A stretch of DNA of 64,000 nucleotides. Origin: Octopus vulgaris. Lineage: Eukaryota. Location of the stretch: assembly GCA_951406725.2 (NCBI GenBank), contig OX597820.1, forward strand, positions 16,430,001 to 16,494,000, written 5' to 3'. Shown in pieces: positions 428 to 64,000 of the stretch. Each line of letters begins with the position of its first letter. Position 1 is the first letter of the stretch. The notes beneath the pieces were generated by a model that did no database searches, was not told the DNA's origin, and was given only the letters and a program-made list of their open reading frames with translations. A program made the position numbers and the translations under genes.

Positions 428-515
<88 letters not shown>

Positions 516-589
516 CAACAATAATAAGGATTATTAAGAAGTGGCATAGCATTACCTTTAATTCTTTTAATACATATACAGCTTTACAT

Positions 590-675
590 AGACCTACACA
601 TGTTTCAACTGCAACGATTAGTGACAGTTGCAATTGGAACCCTATTATAATACCGGTGCCGTTTCTTCAGGGTCC
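590..675 (-). ncRNA. Type I hammerhead ribozyme (Penelope-like), extended stem II
   Basis: Minus strand GGACC-CTGAAGA-AAC...GTT-GAAA-CATGT-GTA^GGTCT; stem I 5 bp; 57 nt between the core halves; lies between microsatellites. Confidence 0.75.
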
Positions 676-767
676 TTACTTAATATCCTTCGATTTAAAT
701 GTTTAAAGTTTTTCGTTATATCTACTCTACGTTGTATGAAGTAAAGTTCTTCGCTAAGTCATATATA

Positions 768-1299: not shown

Positions 1300-2360
1300 T
1301 GTCCAAAGTCTGCCAATACATACAACATCTTTTGACCACCAAGTGTTGAGGTGCATCCCTTGATCAAGTTTGCATACATGAAGCTGATAACATCATAAGA
1401 CTTGGAAGGCAGCTCCTTGAGCAACACTCTTTGTCTGATAACCTAAAATATATGCCCAAAGACGTCGCACGACTCTACTGCATCATATCATGAGATGAAA
1501 GGACGAGACTGTATGAGTAGAAGACTAAGCATGGATATGTTAGTAGAAAACTCTTTGATGATAGTAACATTGATTATCAAAGCAGTTTATCATGGACGAA
1601 GAGCCAGATTATTACCTCCCACTTTCAATCCAGGAACAGGAAATATTAACCAAGCACCTGATGCACAAAAGGGATACAGATGCGGGAAAAGCCGTAAAAT
1701 GTGACAACCGATGCAGACTTTGTGGAGTTCACACTAAAGATATCACCCTCATCATAAGCAGTTGTCCGAAAATGTATTATCTACCGATGAGACATGACGT
1801 AGTTAGGACACTCTATGGAGAAATCCGTCGGAAGGATAATCCCGAGAACAAAGAAATAAAACCCCACAATATGGTAGAAGCCATAGCCACTCATAATGAA
1901 AAGGATGTACCAGTAGTGGAATATACCAGTGAAGACCTCAATAAAATGTAAGCACAACAGGCCTGACATAATGATTTGGGATGGAGAAGAGAAACTGTGC
2001 ACAGTTGTGGAAATTAGCTGCCCAGCGGATGCTAATATAAAGCTGAAGATCAGTGAAAAAGAGAACACCTATGCTGAACTGTTGAGAAATCTGCAGTTAC
2101 TCTATCCAGATTACAAGATCAGGTTTATACCTGTAATTATTGGAACCCTGGGATATGTAACACACTGCTTAAATACCAATCTTGAGAAATAAGGCTTCTC
2201 AAAACCAGAATGGAGAAAGCTAATTCGAAGGCTACAGATCCAATCCATCACCGGAACTGTAAAAATTTGTAAAACTTTACAGAAGTTTATCATTTAAATA
2301 TATATAAGCATGTCTAGATATGTAATTCTATGCATGAGAATACATACATAAAACATACAA
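1300..2360 (+). mobile_element. Decayed RLE-type non-LTR retrotransposon (R4/Dong-like), 3' part
   Basis: Frameshifted ORFs with zinc-knuckle-like CRLC...IISSC and restriction-like endonuclease motif NRPDIMIW...VVEISCP...EKENTY...IPVIIGTLG; ends in (TACA)n; boundaries approximate. Confidence 0.8.
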
Positions 2361-7252: not shown

Positions 7253-7321
7253 GTATGCTGCAGACATGTGTATACATACATATATATATATATATATATA
7301 AAGAGAGGGGCGGGTGGAAAA

Positions 7322-7390
7322 CAAAGCAGGAGGGTTTGTTCATAAAATATTTAGTAACTAAATATTTTATGAACAAACCCGCCTGCTTTG
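7322..7390. repeat. Short palindrome between (TA)n tracts
   Basis: CAAAGCAGG-AGGGTTTGTTCATAAAATATTTAGT/ACTAAATATTTTATGAACAAACCC-GCCTGCTTTG. Confidence 0.85.
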
Positions 7391-7588
7391 CTTCGCCTTG
7401 TATATATATATATATATATTCTATGATCGATCCAACTGTGAGAGTTCAACAAAATGAAACTCAGACCATTGTACGAGGTCTCGTCTTGGATATACAGGAA
7501 TACACATCGTCAGTAGTTGCTATTTCGATCTGGTTAAATCTTTTCAGTACAAAAAAAAAGCGTTCATCAATTACATTATATTATTTTA

Positions 7589-16487: not shown

Positions 16488-16495
16488 AAAGAGAT

Positions 16496-17384
16496 AGCCA
16501 GTGCACAATCACCTGGTCCTTGGATACTTGGGTACCCTTAACGAAGTACGCTCTCTTGGAAGCATTCGAGCCAATTCTACCGTTTCTTTTATTTCTCTCA
16601 TCCTCAGACGTAGAGAACCTATAAAAAAATAACTCATAACCGGTGCTCAATCACCTGGTCCTTGGATACTTGGGTACCCTTAACGAAGTACGCTCTCTTT
16701 GAATCATTCGAACCAATTCTACCGTTTCTTTTATTTCTCTCATCCTCAGAGGAGGAAAACCTATGAAAAATAACTCATAATCGGTGCACAATCACCTGGT
16801 CCTTGGATACTTGGGTACCCTTAACGAAGTACGCTCTCTTGGAAGCATTCGAACCAATTCTACCGTTTTCTTTTATTTCTCTCATCCTCAGACGAGGAGA
16901 ACCTATGAAAAATAACTCATAGCCAGTGCACAATCACCTGGTCCTTGGATACTTGGGTACCCTTAACGAAGTACGCTCTCTTGGAAGCATTCGAACCAAT
17001 TCTACCGTTTTCTTTTATTTCTCTCATCCTCAGACATGGAGAACCTATAAAAAAATAACTCATAACCTATTTCTTTACTACCCACAAGGGGCTAAACATA
17101 GAGGGGACAAACAAGAACAGACATAGGTATTAAGTCGAATACATCGACCCCAGTGCTTAACTGGTACTTATTTAATTGACCCCGAAAGGATGAAAGGCAA
17201 AGTCGACCTCAGCGGAATTTGAACTCACAACGTAACGGCAGACGAAATACCACTAAGCATTTCGCCCGGCGTGCTAACGTTTTTGCCAGCTCGCCGCCTT
17301 TACTCATAACCGGTGCACAATCACCTGGTCCTTGGATACTTGGGTAACCATAACGAAGTACGCTCTCTTGGAGGCATTCGTACC
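16496..17384. repeat. Tandem repeat, ~142-bp unit x ~4.5, interrupted by a SINE
   Basis: Unit anchor GTGCACAATCACCTGG at 16501, 16643, 16784, 16926, 17313. Confidence 0.95.
17068..17301 (-). mobile_element. SINE family B with 10-bp TSD
   Basis: ACTCATAACC at 17058-17067 and 17302-17311. Confidence 0.9.
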
Positions 17385-20259: not shown

Positions 20260-20303
<44 letters not shown>

Positions 20304-20382
20304 TTTATTTAAAGCAGCAGAAAATTCAACAAAACCTGTTACTCTGAGTTTCACGTTGCCGTTCATCGGACAGTTTTTTCTA

Positions 20383-20434
20383 GCAAAAACTGTCCGATGA
20401 ACGGCAACGTGAAACTCAGAGTAACAGGTTTTGT
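20383..20434 (+). ncRNA. Minimal type I hammerhead (CCGATGA variant) within perfect hairpin 20303-20460
   Basis: GCAAAAACTGT-CCGATGA-ACGGCAACGT-GAAA-CTCAGA-GTA^ACAGGTTTTGT; mirror copy on the minus strand in the left arm. Confidence 0.75.
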
Positions 20435-20530
20435 TGAATTTTCTGCTGCTTTAAATAAAGCATATTACTCTACCACTGGTATTTGAGTACTCTTTTTTTC
20501 CACCTTGTTTCACATTTATGTGTTTACTCC

Positions 20531-20600
<70 letters not shown>

Positions 20601-20889: not shown

Positions 20890-20910
20890 TATATATATCG
20901 TATATATATA

Positions 20911-21297
20911 TTGATCAAAATAAAAACATGATGCCAAGGATTCAGCGGTACATATGTTTCGGGCCTTTATTAGACAGATTTATAACAATGCATAATGTAT
21001 GTCTGTGGCCTTCTTCAGCCGCGCACAACAGCTTCCACAAGGACATGTGTTACATCAAAAATTCTTGGTTGGGGATGCAAATCCTCTCATTCGCGTATGA
21101 CATAATGCGGCAGCAGCATAGAATTGAAGCGTCCATCTCTTTCTTCTCTCAATATAGAATCATGTCCTTGTGGAAGCTGTTGTGCGCGGCTGAAGAAGGC
21201 CACAGACATACATTATGCATTGTTATAAATCTGTCTAATAAAGGCCCGAAACATATGTACCGCTGAATCCTTGGCATCATGTTTTTATTTTGATCAA
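20911..21297. mobile_element. Penelope-like fold-back element (137-bp arms, 113-bp spacer)
   Basis: 20911-21047 is the reverse complement of 21161-21297; (TA)n flanks; hammerhead in each arm; spacer QILSF...RIEASI weakly resembles a GIY-YIG C-terminus. Confidence 0.7.
21186..21263 (+). ncRNA. Type I hammerhead, extended stem II
   Basis: GCGG-CTGAAGA-AGGCC...GGCCC-GAAA-CATAT-GTA^CCGC; palindromic stem III ACATATGT. Confidence 0.75.
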
Positions 21298-22258
21298 TTT
21301 ACTCCACCACCTACACCACCAAACGGTATACACAGGTGCTTATAATTATCAAGTACTCACCCCGAATTTCTGTACTCAACTATATATATATATATACTTA
21401 TACTTATACTTAAGTATATACATACGTTCAAACATACATAAAACACACACATATATATATATACATACATGCATGCGTGCAACACACACACATACACACA
21501 CACATGCGCCTTTTCCTTTTCAAATAACCCCAATTGTTTTAATTTAAATATGCATAGTGACATTTCCTTTACAAAATATGTTTATATTATTCACTTATGT
21601 ATATATAATTATATGCGCGCGCATGTGTGTGCCTGTGCCTGCGCGTATAGACAAATACAATATATTCAAATACAGGTATGATAAATACCTTGCAATATAA
21701 ATTCTTGATTTATTGAAAGGATGTATCATAATTACCAAATGGCAATTAAGACCAGCTCCGCTTGAGAAAGGGAGATAATCTCATAAATCAAGAACTCTCC
21801 AAAACTGATGTGCCAATAAGGAAAAGAGCAGGCTTATTGTCTGGGGACAAGTAGAAAAGTCGTGAACACATGTTTCTGCATCAGTAAGCGTCATTAGCAC
21901 GGCAATTGTTCAACTGCAGTCAAGGGACATAAGCGTACAAAAAGAGAAGTATGGCCTGGGCAATTTGCATAATTTAAGCAAAAAAATGAGTCAAGGGAAA
22001 TAACTCAGAGTAGCCTGTAACATATATTTGAACAACATGACAAATGTAGGTGTATCAAATACCATGCAATATAAATTCTTGATTTCTTAAAAATAATCCC
22101 CCCCCTCTCTCTCTCTCTTTCTCTCCCCCCCCACACACACATACATACACAAAGAGTTTGTGCAATGTGAAATAAATTAAACTAAGCACATAGCTCGTAA
22201 ATGCTAGTTTTATAAAAACATTACTTCGAATGTTTAAAAGTTATTGTATATATATATA

Positions 22259-25457: not shown

Positions 25458-25772
25458 GGCGTTGGCGTGGGTGCGTGGTAATAAGCTTGCTTCCCAACCA
25501 CATGGCTTCGGGTTCAGTCCCACTGCGTGGCACCTTGGGTAAGTGTCTTCTACCAAAGCCTTGTGAATGGATTGGTAGACGGAAACTGATAGAAACCCAT
25601 CATGTGCGTGTGTGTTTGTCCCCCACCATCCCTTGAGAACCGGTGTTGGTGCGTTTACGTCCCCATAACTTAGCGGTTCGGCAAAAGAGAATGATAGAAT
25701 AAGTACTAGGCTTACAAAGAATAAGTCCTGTGGTCAATTTGTTCGACTAGCGGATGACTGAAACAAATAAAA
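25458..25772 (+). mobile_element. SINE family A
   Basis: Matches the family head and body. Confidence 0.8.
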
Positions 25773-25784
25773 GAATGACATGCT

Positions 25785-26140
25785 CGTTCAGGTCATGTGG
25801 TACCCTCTTGTCCAGCTTTTTTACCTTGCCGATTTGTTTCAGATGGTCTAATACAGTTGGAATCGAAACATCAAACCTTGCTGCTAACTCACACGTAGTT
25901 TGAGACGTATCTGTTTCCACTACAGCTTCCAGCTCATCATTGTCCACCTTGGTTTCAGCTTTACCACGGGGCTGATTCTTAAGAGTAAAGTCACCGGACC
26001 GGAACTTCTCAAACCATTGACGTACAATGCGCTCATTCGCCACATCTTTACCAAACACCTCACTGGTGTTTCCAGCTGTCTAGGATGCATTGGTTCCACG
26101 ACGGAACTCATATTCATAAACAACACGAATTTTTTTATCT
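25785..26140 (-). mobile_element. Mariner transposase N-terminal (HTH) remnant
   Basis: NERIVRQWFEKFRSGDFTLKNQPRG...ELAARFDVSIPTVLDHLKQIGKVKKLDKRVPHDL. Confidence 0.85.
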
Positions 26141-27705: not shown

Positions 27706-27835
27706 ATTCTATATATATATATATATATATATAAGTTCAGCAACAATTTAGATTCAAATGAATATTGTACTTAATTTAGATGCACCAAAATTTTGTATGG
27801 TGTTACCCATAAAAATATGCGGGGTGATTATAATC

Positions 27836-28374
27836 AAAAATAAGCAACAAGAATGACTCCGGTAATTTGGTACAATTGTTTCGCACTACAACATTTTATT
27901 AAAAGTTGTAAGTATTACAGCAGATTTAAGATGCTGAGTGCTCTTCAGCCAATTATATAGGTTTTCCAATAATATAAAAGCTTTCAAATCAAGTAGTAAC
28001 ATTTTAGAGAAGGTAGATATACACATAAAGATGTAGATTTAAATTTTAAGAACATATGAGGTTGTGAAGTTCAGCCACTAACCGACCAAACTATGGTTGT
28101 ATCTGACTGCTATAAGAATTAGAAGTCATAAATGGCTGAACTTCACAACCTCATATGTTCTTAAAATTTAAATCTACATCTTTATCTGTATATCTACCTT
28201 CTCTAAAATGTTACTACTTGATTTGAAAGCTTTTATATTATTGGAAAACCTATGTAATTGGCTGAAGAGCACTCAGCATCTTAAATCTGTTGTAATACTT
28301 ACAACTTTTAATAAAATGTTGTAGTGCGAAACAATTGTACCAAATTACCGGAGTCATTCTTGTTGCTTATTTTT
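27836..28374. mobile_element. Penelope-like fold-back element (~242-bp arms, ~55-bp spacer)
   Basis: 27836-28077 versus 28133-28374 with about 3 mismatches; between (TA)n tracts; hammerhead in each arm. Confidence 0.75.
28255..28347 (+). ncRNA. Type I hammerhead, canonical core, extended stem II
   Basis: TTGG-CTGAAGA-GCACT...AGTGC-GAAA-CAATT-GTA^CCAA; palindromic stem III ACAATTGT. Confidence 0.85.
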
Positions 28375-28376
28375 TA

Positions 28377-28419
<43 letters not shown>

Positions 28420-30677: not shown

Positions 30678-31185
30678 TTGTTACGACTTTAACTTCCTCT
30701 AAGCGATCGTGTTCGGTCGTCTTCTCCGGGCCAACAGAGAACGCGCGGAACACCGACGACGCGCGGAACGCCGACGACGCGCGGAACGCCGACGACGCGC
30801 GGAACACCGACGATGCGCGGAACGCCGCCGCGCTTAAGCGGACTCTGTCGACCAGATCCGAGGACCACACAGGACCGATCGATCGGTAGTAGTGACGGGT
30901 GGTGTGCACAAAGGGCAAGGAAGTGATCGACGTGGGCTGATGACCCGCGCATACCGGGAATTCTTCGTTCACGTGGTTGGTTCCAGGCCCCGATTCCTAT
31001 CACGGGAGGTGGTTCAGTGGTTTCCCGACCCTCTCGGGCCGGAGGAGACGCGCCCGCTGATACCTCCAGTGTAGCGTGCGTGCGGCCCCGGACATTTAAG
31101 GGCATCACAGACCTGTTATCGCTCCGCCTCGTGCGGCTTTCTGCCGCCCGTCGCTCTAAGAAGCGCTGCGTTCGCCAACCGACTG
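30678..31185 (-). pseudogene. 18S rRNA 3' fragment (pseudogene)
   Basis: Reverse complements of conserved 18S motifs (TTGTTACGACTTT.ACTTCCTCTA; GACGGG.GGTGTG..CAAAGGGCA; AAGGGCATCACAGACCTGTTAT) with CpG-type substitutions; isolated, about 500 bp. Confidence 0.9.
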
Positions 31186-31389
31186 GCCCGGATGCAGTCA
31201 TTACACTGTGGACATGCTGGGGCACTGTTTTTTAAAGAATTTTTAGTCGAACGAATCGATCCCAGGACTTTCTTTTTAAAGCCTGATACTTTATTTTGCC
31301 AAACTGTTAAGTTACAGGGGCGTAAACACACCAATCCCAGTTTACATGTGTGTATATATATATACACACACACACATACATACATATAT

Positions 31390-36150: not shown

Positions 36151-36167
36151 ACACACAGATTCTAAGG

Positions 36168-36693
36168 CAGAGGTCACCAAATTACGGCCCGCGAGGTCAG
36201 TTCATCCTGCCTGTCACTGCACTGTACCTTTTGTGTAAGTACCTGCAATGAGAGTTCATTTGCCTCTGCTGTGGCATCAGTGTTTAGAACAACTTATGTC
36301 TGTGAGCAAATGTTTTCAAGAATGAAGAATGTGAAGTCAGCCCATCGAATGAGGTTGACTGATGAACATTTGAAAGCAATTCTCTTGGTTGGATGCAGCA
36401 ATTCCAAAGCAAATATTGATGACGTCTTAAAAATTAAACACCAGTTTCGCAAATCTCACCAACCTTTTTTGCTGTTTTGTTCGTGAGATTTGATTATGTG
36501 CGCATCGGATATTGATATAACTATCTTTTTGTTAAACGTCGCCTTCTTCGAAAACTTTTTGGTAAATAAATATGTTGGCTGTCTTTATTTTTTGTGTATT
36601 CATTGTATTGTATTAAACAAAACGGTTATGCGGCCCGCGCTCATCATTCTCTCAGTTATCTGGCCCGCCGGGAAAAAAGTTTGGTGACCCCTG
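36168..36693 (+). mobile_element. Internally deleted hAT (Charlie/SPIN-like) element
   Basis: TIRs CAGAGGTCACCAAA/TTTGGTGACCCCTG; degenerate 8-bp TSD; dimerisation motif FRTTYVCEQMFSRMKNVKSAHRMRLTDEHL. Confidence 0.85.
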
Positions 36694-36750: not shown

Positions 36751-52863
<16,113 letters not shown>

Positions 52864-55093: not shown

Positions 55094-55235
55094 AATGTTA
55101 TTACCAATCCAAAAATGCTTCAGGCACGTTCGAACTGGGGAACAAGCCATTCACTTTCTCCATGACAAAACACAGTGAATGGTTTGTTTCCCAGTTCGAA
55201 CGTGCCTCAAGCATATTTGGACTGGTAACAACATT
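55094..55235. repeat. Imperfect inverted repeat (~62-bp arms)
   Basis: 55094-55155 versus 55174-55235. Confidence 0.85.
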
Positions 55236-58996: not shown

Positions 58997-61900
58997 TGTG
59001 CCTAAGTGAGCGAGAGGCAGACAAGTATATATACATACACACACGTGCCTAAGTGAGCAAGAGACATACAAGTATATATATATACATATATATATATATC
59101 ACCACCCCCTGCCGGAGCCTCGTGGAGCTTTTAAGGAGTTTTCACTCAATAAACACACAACGCCCAGTCTGGGAATTGAAACCGCGAGTCCACTGCCCTA
59201 ACCACTGGGCCATTGCGCCTCCACATATATATATATATATGTATATATATATACATATATATACATACAAACACACACACACACGTGCCTAATTGAGCAA
59301 GTGACATACAGTATATATACAGACACACACACATGCTTAAGTGAGTGAGAGACAGACAAGTATAAAAAGTGTGACAATACCAACCTTGGCATTCTCCATG
59401 GTGTATTTCGAGAAGATGTTAGCATAGAGTTTCTTTTCCTTTTCTTTGTAGTCTTTCATTTTCTTTGTGCAAATGATGATGTGATTCTTAGCAGCTTTAT
59501 TGTCGGGTTCGAATTTTAGCAAGCAATTGAAATCATCCAAGGCTTCTTTGTAGTCATTCTCATTCATCTTTGCCTGTAAAGCACACACACACACAACCAG
59601 ATCAGAAATTTACTTAACACTCGTCTCAATCTTAGTGATTGAATGAGTTTTATAAAGGCAGTGACAACACAAGAGAATTAACCCTTTAGCATTTAAATCA
59701 GCCATCTTCAGCCCAAATATTCTACCTACTTAAATGTTCAAACAGACCAGATCCTGCCTCTTACACCCACACTACAATGTCTTTCTAAAAATAAACAATC
59801 ACATCATTGAAATTCCAAAGCTACAAAATATTGCATGATTAATTCAAAACAATATGAATAATACTACATTCGACAGAGTAATTAGAATGCTGAAGGGTTA
59901 ATGAGTGAATTAATAACATATATACGACAGGCTTCTTTCAGTTTCCATCTGCCAAATCCCCTCACAAGGCTTTCGTTGGCCGAAGACAATAGTAAAAGAC
60001 TTGCCCAAGGTGCCATGCAGTGGGACTGAACCTGGAACCATGTGGTTAGGAAGTAAGCTTCTTACCAGACAAAACCACACCTGTGGAACATTAAATCATC
60101 ACAAGTAATGAAACAATTCAATAAGTGTCTCACCAGGAGTATCCATCTGTATTAACTGGACACAGAAGTCAAGAGACCCAAATTCCAATTGCAGGAATTA
60201 AAATTCAACTGAGACAAATTGTAACAACTGGTTTATGACTTTAGGTTAGTATCAAAGAGTTTTAATTTTAGCGTATTTAAAATTAACACTGTGAAAAATA
60301 GTGAAAGATAATTGTATTACCTGCCCTCGGCGGAAGAATCCTTTGACATTTTGCTCATCAATTTCTAATGCCTTATCACAAGCCTGAATAGCACGATGGG
60401 AATCATTTGTTTTAAGATGACACAAAGCCGTGTTGAGGTGAGCAGCAAGCAAGAGAGATTTCTTTTGTACTTCTTCATCATCTTCTAGACTGGATTCATT
60501 TTCCAAATATGATACAATCTTTTTGTATTGCCTCACAGCTATTTGATATTTTTCACTCTAAATAAAGAGAGACAAAGAGAACTGTACAAAAAAAAGCTCT
60601 GGAGATGTTCAATATATGCGATTTAATGCAAAATACAGTTCATTTATATATAAAAAAATATATGGAAAATACAAGGAAATCACCACATATTGTCAGGGCT
60701 ACTTTCTGGAAGTACTTGCTGTGCCTGGACAATATATGCATCTCTGATCATGAGCAGGAGTAGTTGGGGAGCATCATAATCATAGCCATGTGTTGAGAGG
60801 GATTCTTTGAGGTTTGAATAAATATCGTAACAAAAGCAAAGTTTCAAGGAAATAATAGCCATTTTCCATACTTTTTGTGTAAGCAAATAAGTAATAACAG
60901 TTGCTATCCAAAGACAAAAATCACGTTACACAGTGTTATAGATTCAACAAAGAATTCCTTTACTGAAGAAACATTATGCAGATTACTTCTCTTCAAAAAG
61001 ATTAGAATATAGTAAGAGAGCTAAAAACACTTATTTGGAAATTACAGAGAAAATACAAAATTTAGGACGTTTTATTACAAGTATTGAATATTTCTTACAT
61101 GTGTTGGTAAACTGGGTAATCATGCATGCATGTGTAACACTCTAAAACTATATCAGATATTTAAACATGCTCATTAATTATATCATACACTAAATGGTCT
61201 TATGTTCTCACCCAATAATACTGGATTCAGAATATTACAAGGACTTCATTACGACCAGTTTAACGAAAGGAAATTTGGACTTTGAGTCACAAGTTAATAC
61301 TGATATCATTTTTAATTCAAGGCAACACCATCATCAAGCATTGACAAAAATGATAACATGAAGAACACAAAAACAAACAGGAAAAGAAAGCAACAACAAT
61401 AATATTACCTTATAATATTGGGTACCCTTATTTTTGGCTAATTCTGCTTGTTTTAATTTTTCTTTTGCGTCCATTCTCCAAATTTCTTTTGCCTGAAAGA
61501 AAAATATTATTTCTAATATATTTAGAAGGTTATCAAAATAAAAATATTTTAACATTCATTCAAGGCCCTTTTACAATCCCATTCACTTAGAATGAGCAGA
61601 GAGAGCGAGAGAGAGAGAAGGAACATTTAAGACATTTAAGTTAGACAAAATGATAGTAGAAGCAATTTTTAAGAAAATAGCAGTTACACTTAAACCAATC
61701 AGAAATCGATTCATCGTTATTCTAATAACAGTTTCTGCATACTAACTGGTTCTATAATACAGCAAAGTGACACTCATTTTGGTTCTACACCATTTCATCT
61801 ATAAAGTCCAGTACCCAAAAGCTACCCTCATCACATTCTCTCACACTGTATTTACTGACCATTCCAACACAGTTCTCTCTCCTGAACACCTAAGCTGATG

Positions 61901-64000
61901 CTCTTAAGCAACACTATTTTGCCTTTTTAAAAAAAAAAAAAAAATTAAGAAAATAAAATTCAATTTTATTACTAGTTTTAGTTATTGCAACCAAATCAGA
62001 ATCACCCCACCCCACCAATACTTAAGTCTTATATTTTATCAATCTCTTTGCCAAACCTAAAACTTACAGGACTTAAAAGGGAACACCACAAACAACAGCT
62101 TTTAGACAGGTGCAAAGACACACACCTATACACCGAACATGGTGTACTTTTGCAACTTCCAGCTACTATGGTCCACTCACAAGGTATTGGTTACTACATG
62201 CAACTTGACTAAATGCTGCTGCAATTCTAAACTAGTTTTTTATGAATAAATTAAGACCATAATCAAATTATGTGTATATAATTACAATGTGGAATCTTTC
62301 TCGGCTGACCGAAATATCTATAAAGTGACGAACAATATGATGGTTTAATGTAAGAGAAAACACTACACAGCATCCATCACACAATAACCTGAATCAGAAC
62401 CAATATCTAAAATCCAGCACCAATTGGTCTCAGGTCAGCTGCTAAAACAGATTCTTTTCGCATTCCTCAAGCTTTAAAAAAAAAAAAAAACAAGAACTCA
62501 GCATTGTAAGCTAACCTGATTGTAAATAAACATATGTTAAAGCTATTTACAAGTGGACTGAATCAATGATATTTAACTGATTTAGTGGTGGTACAGATCA
62601 GGAGATATAAACTGTCAACCCTTTGGCTAATAAACACATATTCTATCCTTTCTGCCATGAAGTGCATTACAGAAGACATTTTTATTAGATGCAGTCAAAA
62701 GTCTGCAAGGTTTTCATTTTTCACATTTGCTTTACAAAAATAAACAAAATATGAAAATGGGAAAATGCAAAGGAATCAAAGTTCAAGGAAGGTCGTCTGT
62801 CAGTAAGTTACAAGTTCAAGTTTAGCCCTTTAGCATTTTAACTAACCTTATCTAGCCCAAACATTCTGTTTAATGTTCAATCACATAGAGTTCTATATTC
62901 AAGAGATGAGGAATTATGTACATTATTTACATTCGACAGATATCTGTCCCTATCTTGTTTGTTGTTAACATGTTTCGGCTGATATACCCTCCAGCCTTCT
63001 TTAGGTGTCTTGGGGAAATTTCAAACCTGAGTTCTCATTCCTAAGGTATTTTTCGATGTTATTATTATTGTTAAGGTCAATGCTTGGAATCGAACTTGGA
63101 ATCTTGGGGTTAGTAGCCCGTGCTCTTAACCACTATGCCGTATGCCCATGGGGATATAGCATAGAGCTTAAGAGCATGGGCTACTAACCCCAAGATTCCG
63201 AGTTCAACTCCAAGCACTAACCTGAACAATAACAATAATAACAACAACATCGAAAAATACCTTAGGAATGAGAACCCAGGTTCAAAATTTCCCCCAAGAC
63301 ACCCGAAGAAGGCTGGAGAGTATATCAGCCAAAATGTGTTAACAACAAACAAGATGAGGACAAATATCCATCAAATGTAAATAATGTAAACAATCACATC
63401 ATTGAAATCTCAAAGCTACAAGATAATGACTGATTAATTCAAAACAATGTGAATAGATAAAGCATTACATGCTGAGAGAGACCGACATGTCACAGTATAG
63501 ACTCAGCGCTTCCTCTGCATGTCATAAATGGCGACTAAAGGTGGTTGAGGTAGGATTTTGCAATCGGACCTTGTAAAAACCCTCAGCAGCAATAACGAGC
63601 CAAACAGACCCATGGGCTGGAGGGTTGTTGCCTGAGTGGTGCAAAGGTGTCATCCGCTGGGGGTAAGGGAATCACAAACAAATGGAGGGGGGGGCAGCGA
63701 TGCACTGCTCCCATACTACTACCACTACTACTACAGTTGGCAGAGTAATCTGAACGCTAAAGGGTTAGGGCAACAACACATAAATTAAGTGATACTGAAG
63801 TTTTAAGTGGATAAAATGGATTTATACTGACAATCCATGCCAGCTCGGAAACCAGACATGAAATGATGATGATGATGATGATGATGGAGGCATAGAATGA
63901 GGTTTACCTTTTCAAATGATTTCAATGTGACATCATATTTAAGACGTGCATTAGGTGGAATATTGAATTTAGCATTACCCTCTTCACCATATGCGTACTT
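55806..64000 (-). CDS. FKBP4: FKBP4/FKBP52-like peptidyl-prolyl isomerase with TPRs, 3' part (5' end outside the window)
   Basis: Exons 64000-63908 ([31 protein letters not shown]), 61492-61409, 60557-60321, 59573-59385, 55928-55806, all phase 0; optional exon from 56864; TPR motifs [12 protein letters not shown] and [11 protein letters not shown]; [10 protein letters not shown]; AATAAA on - at 55533-55528. Confidence 0.92.
56696..56864 (-). CDS. FKBP4: FKBP4-like alternative C-terminal exon (3' end uncertain)
   Basis: TTTTGTAG acceptor, phase 0; [38 protein letters not shown]. Confidence 0.65.
57170..57480 (+). mobile_element. SINE/RTE-tail-like element with (GAT)n tail
   Basis: GGCGTTAGGAAGGGCATCCAGCTGTAGAAAC body; related pieces at 53930-54070 and 57910-57960. 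Confidence 0.65.
58920..59365. repeat. Intronic minisatellite (CACGTGCCTAAGTGAGCAAGAGACAGACAAGT) x ~5 with a SINE C fragment (59100-59224)
   Basis: Directly visible repeats. Confidence 0.85.
59385..59573 (-). CDS. FKBP4: FKBP4-like exon (TPR3 and C-terminal helix)
   Basis: [15 protein letters not shown]...[16 protein letters not shown], 63 codons. Confidence 0.92.
59682..59897. mobile_element. piggyBac-like MITE
   Basis: TTAA-CCCTTTAGCATT...AATGCTGAAGGG-TTAA. Confidence 0.8.
60321..60557 (-). CDS. FKBP4: FKBP4-like exon (TPR1-2)
   Basis: [19 protein letters not shown]...[10 protein letters not shown], 79 codons. Confidence 0.93.
61409..61492 (-). CDS. FKBP4: FKBP4-like exon
   Basis: [28 protein letters not shown]. 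Confidence 0.92.
62887..63390. mobile_element. Head-to-head fold-back of a tRNA-derived SINE with a Penelope-like tail, inserted in a piggyBac-like MITE
   Basis: Arms ~62917-63139 and ~63158-63388; candidate TSD CAATCACAT at 62878-62886 and 63391-63399; decayed hammerhead core in each arm. Confidence 0.7.
63908..64000 (-). CDS. FKBP4: FKBP4-like exon (end of FK2 domain), truncated by the window
   Basis: YAYG...[18 protein letters not shown]; donor GTAAAC. Confidence 0.92.

Follow-up and report, generated by a model that had tools for sequence, protein, structure and literature searches.

How a long and nearly perfect inverted repeat in the genome of Octopus vulgaris comes to carry a self-cleaving RNA motif, and whether that motif could act where it now lies, are the questions raised by a locus near the middle of a 64,000-nucleotide stretch of DNA (here called the window). 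The structure is read as what an endonuclease-positive Penelope-like retroelement left behind in a (TA)n run, likely in one insertion event: a dead 3' end (pseudo-LTR) of a parent that was probably of the Hydra type. A probability of roughly 0.88 is assigned to this reading. Judged from its sequence, the window is octopus DNA; a tektin exon within it has 97% identity to tektin-3 of Octopus sinensis. The tektin-3 start codon at 36751 on the + strand lies 8.4 kb downstream of the fold-back, which is therefore outside the coding span, although it could lie in a long 5' intron if that gene has one.

Structure of the Fold-back

The 242-bp arms and 55-nt spacer described in an earlier note made from the DNA letters were recovered by an inverted-repeat search, the arms differing at three positions (28024/28186, 27956/28254, and 27920/28290). 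They extend to 249 bp (27829-28077 / 28133-28381) with two further mismatches, remaining 98% complementary, and no longer inverted repeat occurs in the 64-kb window. The asymmetry of about 100 bp that had been claimed for the left arm is also real, as the left side holds 94-101 nt of extra sequence before its (TA)n when compared with the right arm. This tail measures 101 nt, or 94 nt with the short end set at 27829, an alternative suggested by the loose contig ends of the family described below. Runs of (TA)n flank the fold-back on both sides and would hide any target-site duplication. Divergence between the arms is 1.2-2%, corresponding to an age of roughly 2-3 My at the octopus rate implied in the available text of PMC13282606, if the arms have not been homogenised.

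Table 1. Positions of the fold-back, its parts, and its ribozyme motifs within the window
Feature	Position	Strand	Basis
(TA)12 run, left half of target microsatellite	27710..27733	.	sequence
Longer 5'-truncated copy of element 3' end (spacer, left arm, and tail), 398 bp	27735..28132	- (reads toward 27735)	contigs of other loci
One-sided 3' tail, 94-101 nt, missing from right arm	27735..27835	-	loose ends at 27837 into (TA)n
Left arm, 242 bp	27836..28077	-	inverted-repeat search
55-nt spacer, element sequence continuing left copy, no host filler	28078..28132	-	family contigs
Right arm, inverted and further truncated copy without tail; stops at family short 3' end (28374-28381)	28133..28374	+	arms and family contigs
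(TA)19 run, right half of target microsatellite	28378..28416	.	repeat search
Type I hammerhead, + copy, GUA cut after 28339	28258..28343	+	motif scan and folding
Type I hammerhead, - copy; core 27948-27942, predicted cut after 27871	27867..27952	-	motif scan; 27920 change
59-nt extended helix II domain (5 bp + 6 bp + 3 bp + 7 bp hairpin)	28269..28327	+	folding; structure-keeping family variants
Helix III 8-nt palindrome, predicted dimer interface	28331..28338	+	two-copy fold; paired variant 27874+27877

A Dispersed Family with Two 3' Ends

Sequence related to the fold-back occurs in public data, with at least 20 runs from 10 studies sharing part of it and none of those listed having half its words. 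Contigs from four runs, under three organism labels, were aligned to 27735-28132, and family contigs were found in all four (1831, 1118, 1627, and 102). Contig depth, which is not treated here as copy number, is high over the tail and hammerhead and drops about 100-fold or more by 28132, a gradient that is the pattern of graded 5' truncation in an element reading on the - strand. Loose ends at 27837 lead into (TA)n in 16, 22, 22, and 2 contigs across the four runs. The family owns a second, short 3' end some 95-100 nt from the long one, and it is there that the right arm stops.

The same contigs indicate how the two copies are related. Those of other loci span the left arm and spacer unbroken (one covers 28005-28119), and several carry variants at 28071-28091; as they cross from the arm into the spacer, the spacer belongs to the tailed copy, which at 398 nt compares with 242-249 nt for the inverted one. 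At 28024 and 27920, two of the three arm mismatches, the right arm bears the common family letter, and at 28083 the letter of the window is found in none of the contigs. The arms share letters that are minority in one run (28004 and 28035, for example), so that both derive from one template. Joints between opposite strands were seen at no fewer than four places (27787/27903, 27788/27903, 27872/27954, and 28073/28118), each in one contig, and the junction of the octopus locus itself was seen in none of the contigs of the four runs. In the run guessed to be RNA, A>G and T>C changes number 8 and 11, as against 7-9 and 9-12 in the DNA runs, counts that come from contigs alone and are silent on editing.

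Probable Insertion as a Penelope-like Element

Three features of endonuclease-positive Penelope-like elements were found, namely a head-to-head inverted and 5'-truncated copy, a tail at one end, and dispersed copies with variable 5' truncation. Fig. 2 in Craig 2021 (PMC8557442) shows this layout, a truncated copy in inverted orientation with a tail on one side, and PMC8969392 gives it as the typical Penelope-like unit; the head-to-head arrangement is the most frequent according to Arkhipova 2013 (PMC3846280). Hammerhead pairs on opposite strands, 100-700 bp apart, are described in Cervera 2014 (PMC4209133, partial text). The Penelope-type inverted insertion that had been suggested from the arm asymmetry thus finds support in the head-to-head layout, the one-sided tail, the (TA)n target, and the family data.

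In the mechanism proposed, an RT-GIY-YIG protein from a full copy elsewhere would have cut the (TA)n run, and reverse transcription would have begun at two internal RNA sites ~95-100 nt apart, one per target strand; the products would be a tailed copy that stopped at 398 nt and a tail-less copy of 242-249 nt. Two starts are proposed because the family has two 3' ends and because Frangieh 2024 (PMC11167929), working in vitro with the protein of another Penelope-like element, accounts for the tail by two internal reverse-transcription starts. The copies would then have been joined 5'-to-5', as they lie at the locus, with the minority alleles in common marking the one template. The ribozyme is predicted to work solely as a double hammerhead formed through its 8-nt palindrome, which would be possible in the tandem RNA of the parent. 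The fold-back is predicted to hold one sense copy per strand with the antisense arm first, so that read-through RNA would be an uncut 242-bp duplex and, if transcribed, a putative ADAR or small-RNA substrate.

No RT or GIY-YIG domain was detected by Pfam in nine chosen stretches or in the 300 longest of the 416 stop-free stretches of the window, the domains found there being pieces of tektin, FKBP/TPR, mariner, and hAT, and no long open frame occurs within the element. Two pattern scans of metagenomes for related loci gave 0 matches. One motif common to the tails of three window elements fell short of significance, since 419, 1859, and 205 of 2000 shuffles did equally well, and the tails of the window elements fold no better than shuffles.

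The Hammerhead Motifs

Each arm carries one complete type I hammerhead core, and both ribozymes face outward into (TA)n. A strict type I scan, requiring at least 5, 2, and 4 pairs in helices II, III, and I, respectively, found two sites in the window, the two arm copies, and none in 200/200 dinucleotide-shuffled windows. The earlier note had named one hammerhead, that of the + arm, which is confirmed; the - arm holds its mirror copy. In that copy CUGAAGA (28262-28268) and GAAA (28328-28331) accompany A17 at 28339, with the predicted cut directly after it, so that the CUGANGA, GAAA, NUH triplet, and G10.1-C11.1 elements of a type I hammerhead are all present. Helix II is formed by GCACT (28269-28273) and AGTGC (28323-28327), and helix I by TTGG (28258-28261) and CCAA (28340-28343), the latter extending across one bulge. 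Both helices and the cut site agree with those given in the earlier note.

Of the three helices around the core, I and II are stable in the + copy, whereas helix III has 2 bp as a monomer and 8 bp between two copies. The palindromic letters proposed for stem III, ACAATTGT at 28331-28338, are present, but one RNA makes with them just two pairs and a 4-nt loop, at a pair probability of 0.08-0.09. The nested helices that had been proposed for the 59-nt stem II domain, CAGCAT/ATGTTG (with one G.U) and GTTGTAA/TTACAAC, both appear in the minimum-energy fold of the + copy; in the - copy, the change at 27920 breaks the inner GTTGTAA/TTACAAC helix. Folding of the 116-nt region stands out modestly from shuffled sequence, with a z-score of -1.99 and 8/200 shuffles equally good. 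A focused Rfam scan up to E 10 gave 8 matches, none of them to a hammerhead family, a result that the long helix II likely explains; over the whole window, Rfam was dominated by microsatellite matches, 150 among the 200 matches listed.

Variation within the family can be read against this fold. From 40 listed of 73 variant rows, 27 variants were placed on it, and the sole single-stranded core position among these 27 is N7, the free one, while core changes may exist among the remaining rows. Variants 27874 and 27877 are carried by almost the same number of contigs in each run (76/76, 56/59, 58/66, and 5/5), and together they preserve the helix III palindrome, a pairing drawn from the similar counts of unphased variants. 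At paired positions, 6/7 changes keep or restore pairing, with 27884+27940 counted jointly; variant 27891 breaks a G.U pair. Among the mapped, unphased variants, changes in helices II and III thus appear to be structure-keeping.

Predicted Behavior of the Ribozyme

Folding prediction gives the full hammerhead fold a probability of 0.02 in a single RNA of the + copy and 0.0004 in that of the - copy. Two + copies are predicted to form a double hammerhead with both cores open (-52.8 vs -42.8 kcal/mol for two monomers), and two-copy folding of the - copy yields no double hammerhead. The + copy ribozyme is predicted by these models to need a dimer made through its palindromic helix III. In read-through RNA the hammerhead fold would cost 115-116 kcal/mol on either strand, and helix II is predicted to be lost in transcripts that begin at 27930 or further left, surviving solely for starts right of ~27945. 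Since the antisense arm is transcribed first from either side, the ribozyme is predicted to be trapped.

Published experiments point in the same direction. A single minimal motif is uncleaved and dimers cleave at a low level in Cervera 2014 (PMC4209133, partial text), and the cited text of Frangieh 2024 (PMC11167929) reports no cleavage without the element protein and the absence of RNA-seq ends at the cut. Because of these results and the predicted trap, cleavage at the octopus locus inside the cell is considered unlikely. What the earlier note had called the cleanest hammerhead in the window, fully canonical, deserves that description in its core, but activity here does not follow from it, as helix III is dimer-dependent and the arm is a predicted trap.

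Other Fold-backs and Hammerheads in the Window

Several further structures of related kinds lie in the window. At 20303-20532, between (TA)n runs, is a tailed fold-back with 76-bp arms, a 6-nt spacer, and a 72-nt tail, bearing on both arms a compact hammerhead with U4 changed to C; its layout resembles Hydra-2_aMil, and by eye its tail hairpin is like those of two Hydra consensi. A second tailed fold-back, at 20910-21380, has 138-bp arms, a 113-nt spacer, and a tail of about 82 nt, with hammerhead cores at 21190 (+) and 21018 (-) in which an additional A follows A9 and the helix II region spans 51 nt. An older, decayed fold-back at 62898-63406, matching at 210/238 positions, sits between FKBP-TPR exons and retains on each arm a hammerhead remnant, the core changes differing between the two. 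A lone hammerhead at 514-760 (-), with its core at 670, its cut after 595, and a 57-nt helix II region, is flanked by microsatellites and has no inverted partner. In the short fold-backs at 270-423, 7275-7425, and 55094-55235 a hammerhead was not found; the first two adjoin (TA)n runs. A 142-bp x 4 tandem repeat at 16494-17067 contains CUGAGGA on the - strand and fails the hammerhead scans.

Comparison with Known Elements

The "endonuclease-positive Penelope" unit, so far as the cited text describes it, shares with the octopus fold-back the head-to-head copy, the one-end tail, 5' truncation, a microsatellite target, and a hammerhead near the 3' end. Its tail is 30-40 bp (31 bp in Pen2a_Av), as against 94-101 nt here, or two to three times that length, and no ORF is present here. 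The metazoan Penelope-like hammerheads of PMC4209133 (partial text) are likewise of type I, with a palindromic helix III, G10.1-C11.1, dimer dependence, and opposite-strand pairs; their helix II has 7-8 bp, whereas the octopus motif has its 59-nt domain and lacks the extra nucleotide between A9 and G10.1. A precedent for a long loop II is the 35-nt loop of PLE-X1_sMoe. Poseidon of Anolis, or PAc, as presented in part of PMC11167929, resembles the octopus element in its two-start tail and AT-rich target, and its hammerhead is inactive without protein, but its start offset is 30-40 nt and its ORF begins within helix II, while the octopus element has no long open frame. Animal non-LTR retrozymes (bioRxiv 10.64898/2026.07.22.740005, partial text) also carry a type I, dimer-type hammerhead from Penelope-like ends; they form head-to-tail tandems, in contrast to the head-to-head arrangement here with one sense copy per strand, and as no tandem unit exists at the locus, this class was rejected.

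The Hydra clade, as tabulated in the supplement of Craig 2021, offers a fitting geometry. Its members prefer (TA)n (26/27 Hydra rows), have canonical type I hammerheads with a 3-4-bp palindromic helix III, and occur in Octopus. Among 24 Hydra consensi, 10 end 30-48 nt past the cut and 11 end 88-153 nt past it, the remaining 3 falling in neither range. The octopus fold-back, with distances of 35-42 and 136 nt, matches this spacing by an ad hoc measure for which there is no published criterion; the three tailed elements of the window end 37/109, 39/121, and 35-42/136 nt past the cut. The long tail is thus probably a Hydra trait already hidden in published consensus lengths. All Hydra rows have short helix II hairpins, in contrast to the 59-nt domain here. 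As the 3' end of Hydra-1_Obim, compared by eye, is unlike that of the octopus element, the latter belongs to another family.

Alternative Explanations

By RNA geometry, assignment of the parent to the Hydra clade is somewhat favored. Within the Penelope reading, the same mechanism would serve a parent from another clade with a C-terminal endonuclease (Neptune, Penelope/Poseidon, or Nematis), a less likely origin that nevertheless deserves serious weight: Neptune is tied to microsatellite targeting in the cited part of Craig 2021 (PMC8557442), every EN+ clade has the inverted copy with its tail, and Hydra-1_Obim does not match. The bimodal cut-to-end spacing and the 4+4 helix III, on the other hand, fit the Hydra table, in a comparison that is one-sided because it was made with that table alone. 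That the long-helix-II hammerhead might be the "missing" Naiad ribozyme, overlooked because published descriptors limit helix II to 17 nt, is barely credible, even though the (TA)n-targeted elements Naiad_Ovul and Naiad_Esco bear the flag "HHR_half_core." By eye, the octopus element does not resemble Naiad_Obim, Naiad_Ovul, or Naiad_Omin at the 3' end; three 16-letter probes gave 0 matches in the Craig 2021 supplement, where line breaks could mask one; and cephalopod Naiads are described as old remnants, whereas the octopus family looks young. A Naiad origin was rejected, Naiads being without a canonical hammerhead and the octopus Naiad 3' ends differing by eye.

A MITE or fold-back DNA transposon holding a hammerhead by chance would explain the long, terminal-looking inverted repeats, the TA flanks, and the high copy number, yet such elements have fixed symmetric ends and constant structure, while here the ends are asymmetric, depth follows a 5'-truncation gradient, and inversion points and truncation vary among copies. 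In addition, three unrelated families of the window all end 35-42 nt past the cut site, and a MITE is very improbable. Equally improbable is a hairpin or ribozyme switch used by the host, perhaps upstream of tektin-3: the intact core, the downstream tektin-3 start codon, and the presence of family parts in the run guessed as RNA would suit this role, but the low divergence of the arms marks them as young, conservation is family-wide rather than locus-specific, unrelated sequence at 20303-20532 and 20910-21380 has the same layout, and pairing of the arms is predicted to keep the ribozyme silent. The near-perfect palindrome, together with the junction unseen in the contigs of four runs, could also be the product of a sequencing or assembly artefact. 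An artefact would, however, mirror tail and flank with identical arms, not with three differences between them, and the right arm has the common letter of the family at two of these and stops at the short end of the family, so that an artefact is scarcely probable. The retroelement insertion remains the preferred reading of the locus.

Significance

The layout has already been published, and the octopus fold-back is ordinary in kind, recurring in the window with unrelated sequence; as a single locus, one dead insertion in a known pattern, it carries little weight. What is apparently new is that a Penelope-type hammerhead of an animal has a conserved 59-nt helix II, together with the explicit description of a long tail and the argument for self-trapping. 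A literature search over open papers, outside Repbase and Dfam, found no octopus Penelope hammerhead with a long helix II, and the longer tail may already be in print. The + copy represents a young, intact hammerhead predicted to be weak alone, active as a dimer, and silent in the fold-back, predictions that bear on the open question of the role of Penelope hammerheads. For models in which Penelope reverse transcription has two starts, the long tail supplies a second geometry.

Broader effects on octopus RNA are conceivable. Porath 2017 (PMC5625713) describes octopus as exceptionally rich in such double-stranded structures, the source being named in the cited text for frog alone. Hammerhead-bearing arms make up 2.2% of the 64-kb window, a figure that rests on a different measure from that of the quoted part of Porath 2017; if such fold-backs occur at this density across the genome, some of the double-stranded RNA load of octopus could be theirs. 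A bolder proposal, speculative and rather improbable, is that an octopus subtype of Hydra-type elements, with a conserved 50-60-nt helix II missed by Rfam and short-helix descriptors and a start offset of 70-100 nt, supplies through its self-muted, head-to-head dead ends a main source of the near-perfect double-stranded RNA behind hyper-editing.

Genes and Other Repeats of the Window

The tektin-3-like gene, at 36751-52860 (+), has eight coding exons by tblastn, and part of one exon occurs a second time at 45291-45326. On the opposite strand, the exons at 59337-64000 (-) belong to a TPR-containing isomerase of the FKBP type, FKBP4-like. The stretch at 1574-2192 (+), a mobile-element remnant without a Pfam match, resembles the zinc-knuckle/nuclease end of a LINE. 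Fragments of the 3' part of 18S rRNA at 30678-31231 (-), which enclose an 18-bp x 4.8 tandem repeat, are likely a pseudogene. Further mobile-element remnants are a mariner HTH at 25750-26079 (-) and a hAT C terminus at 36166-36483 (+).
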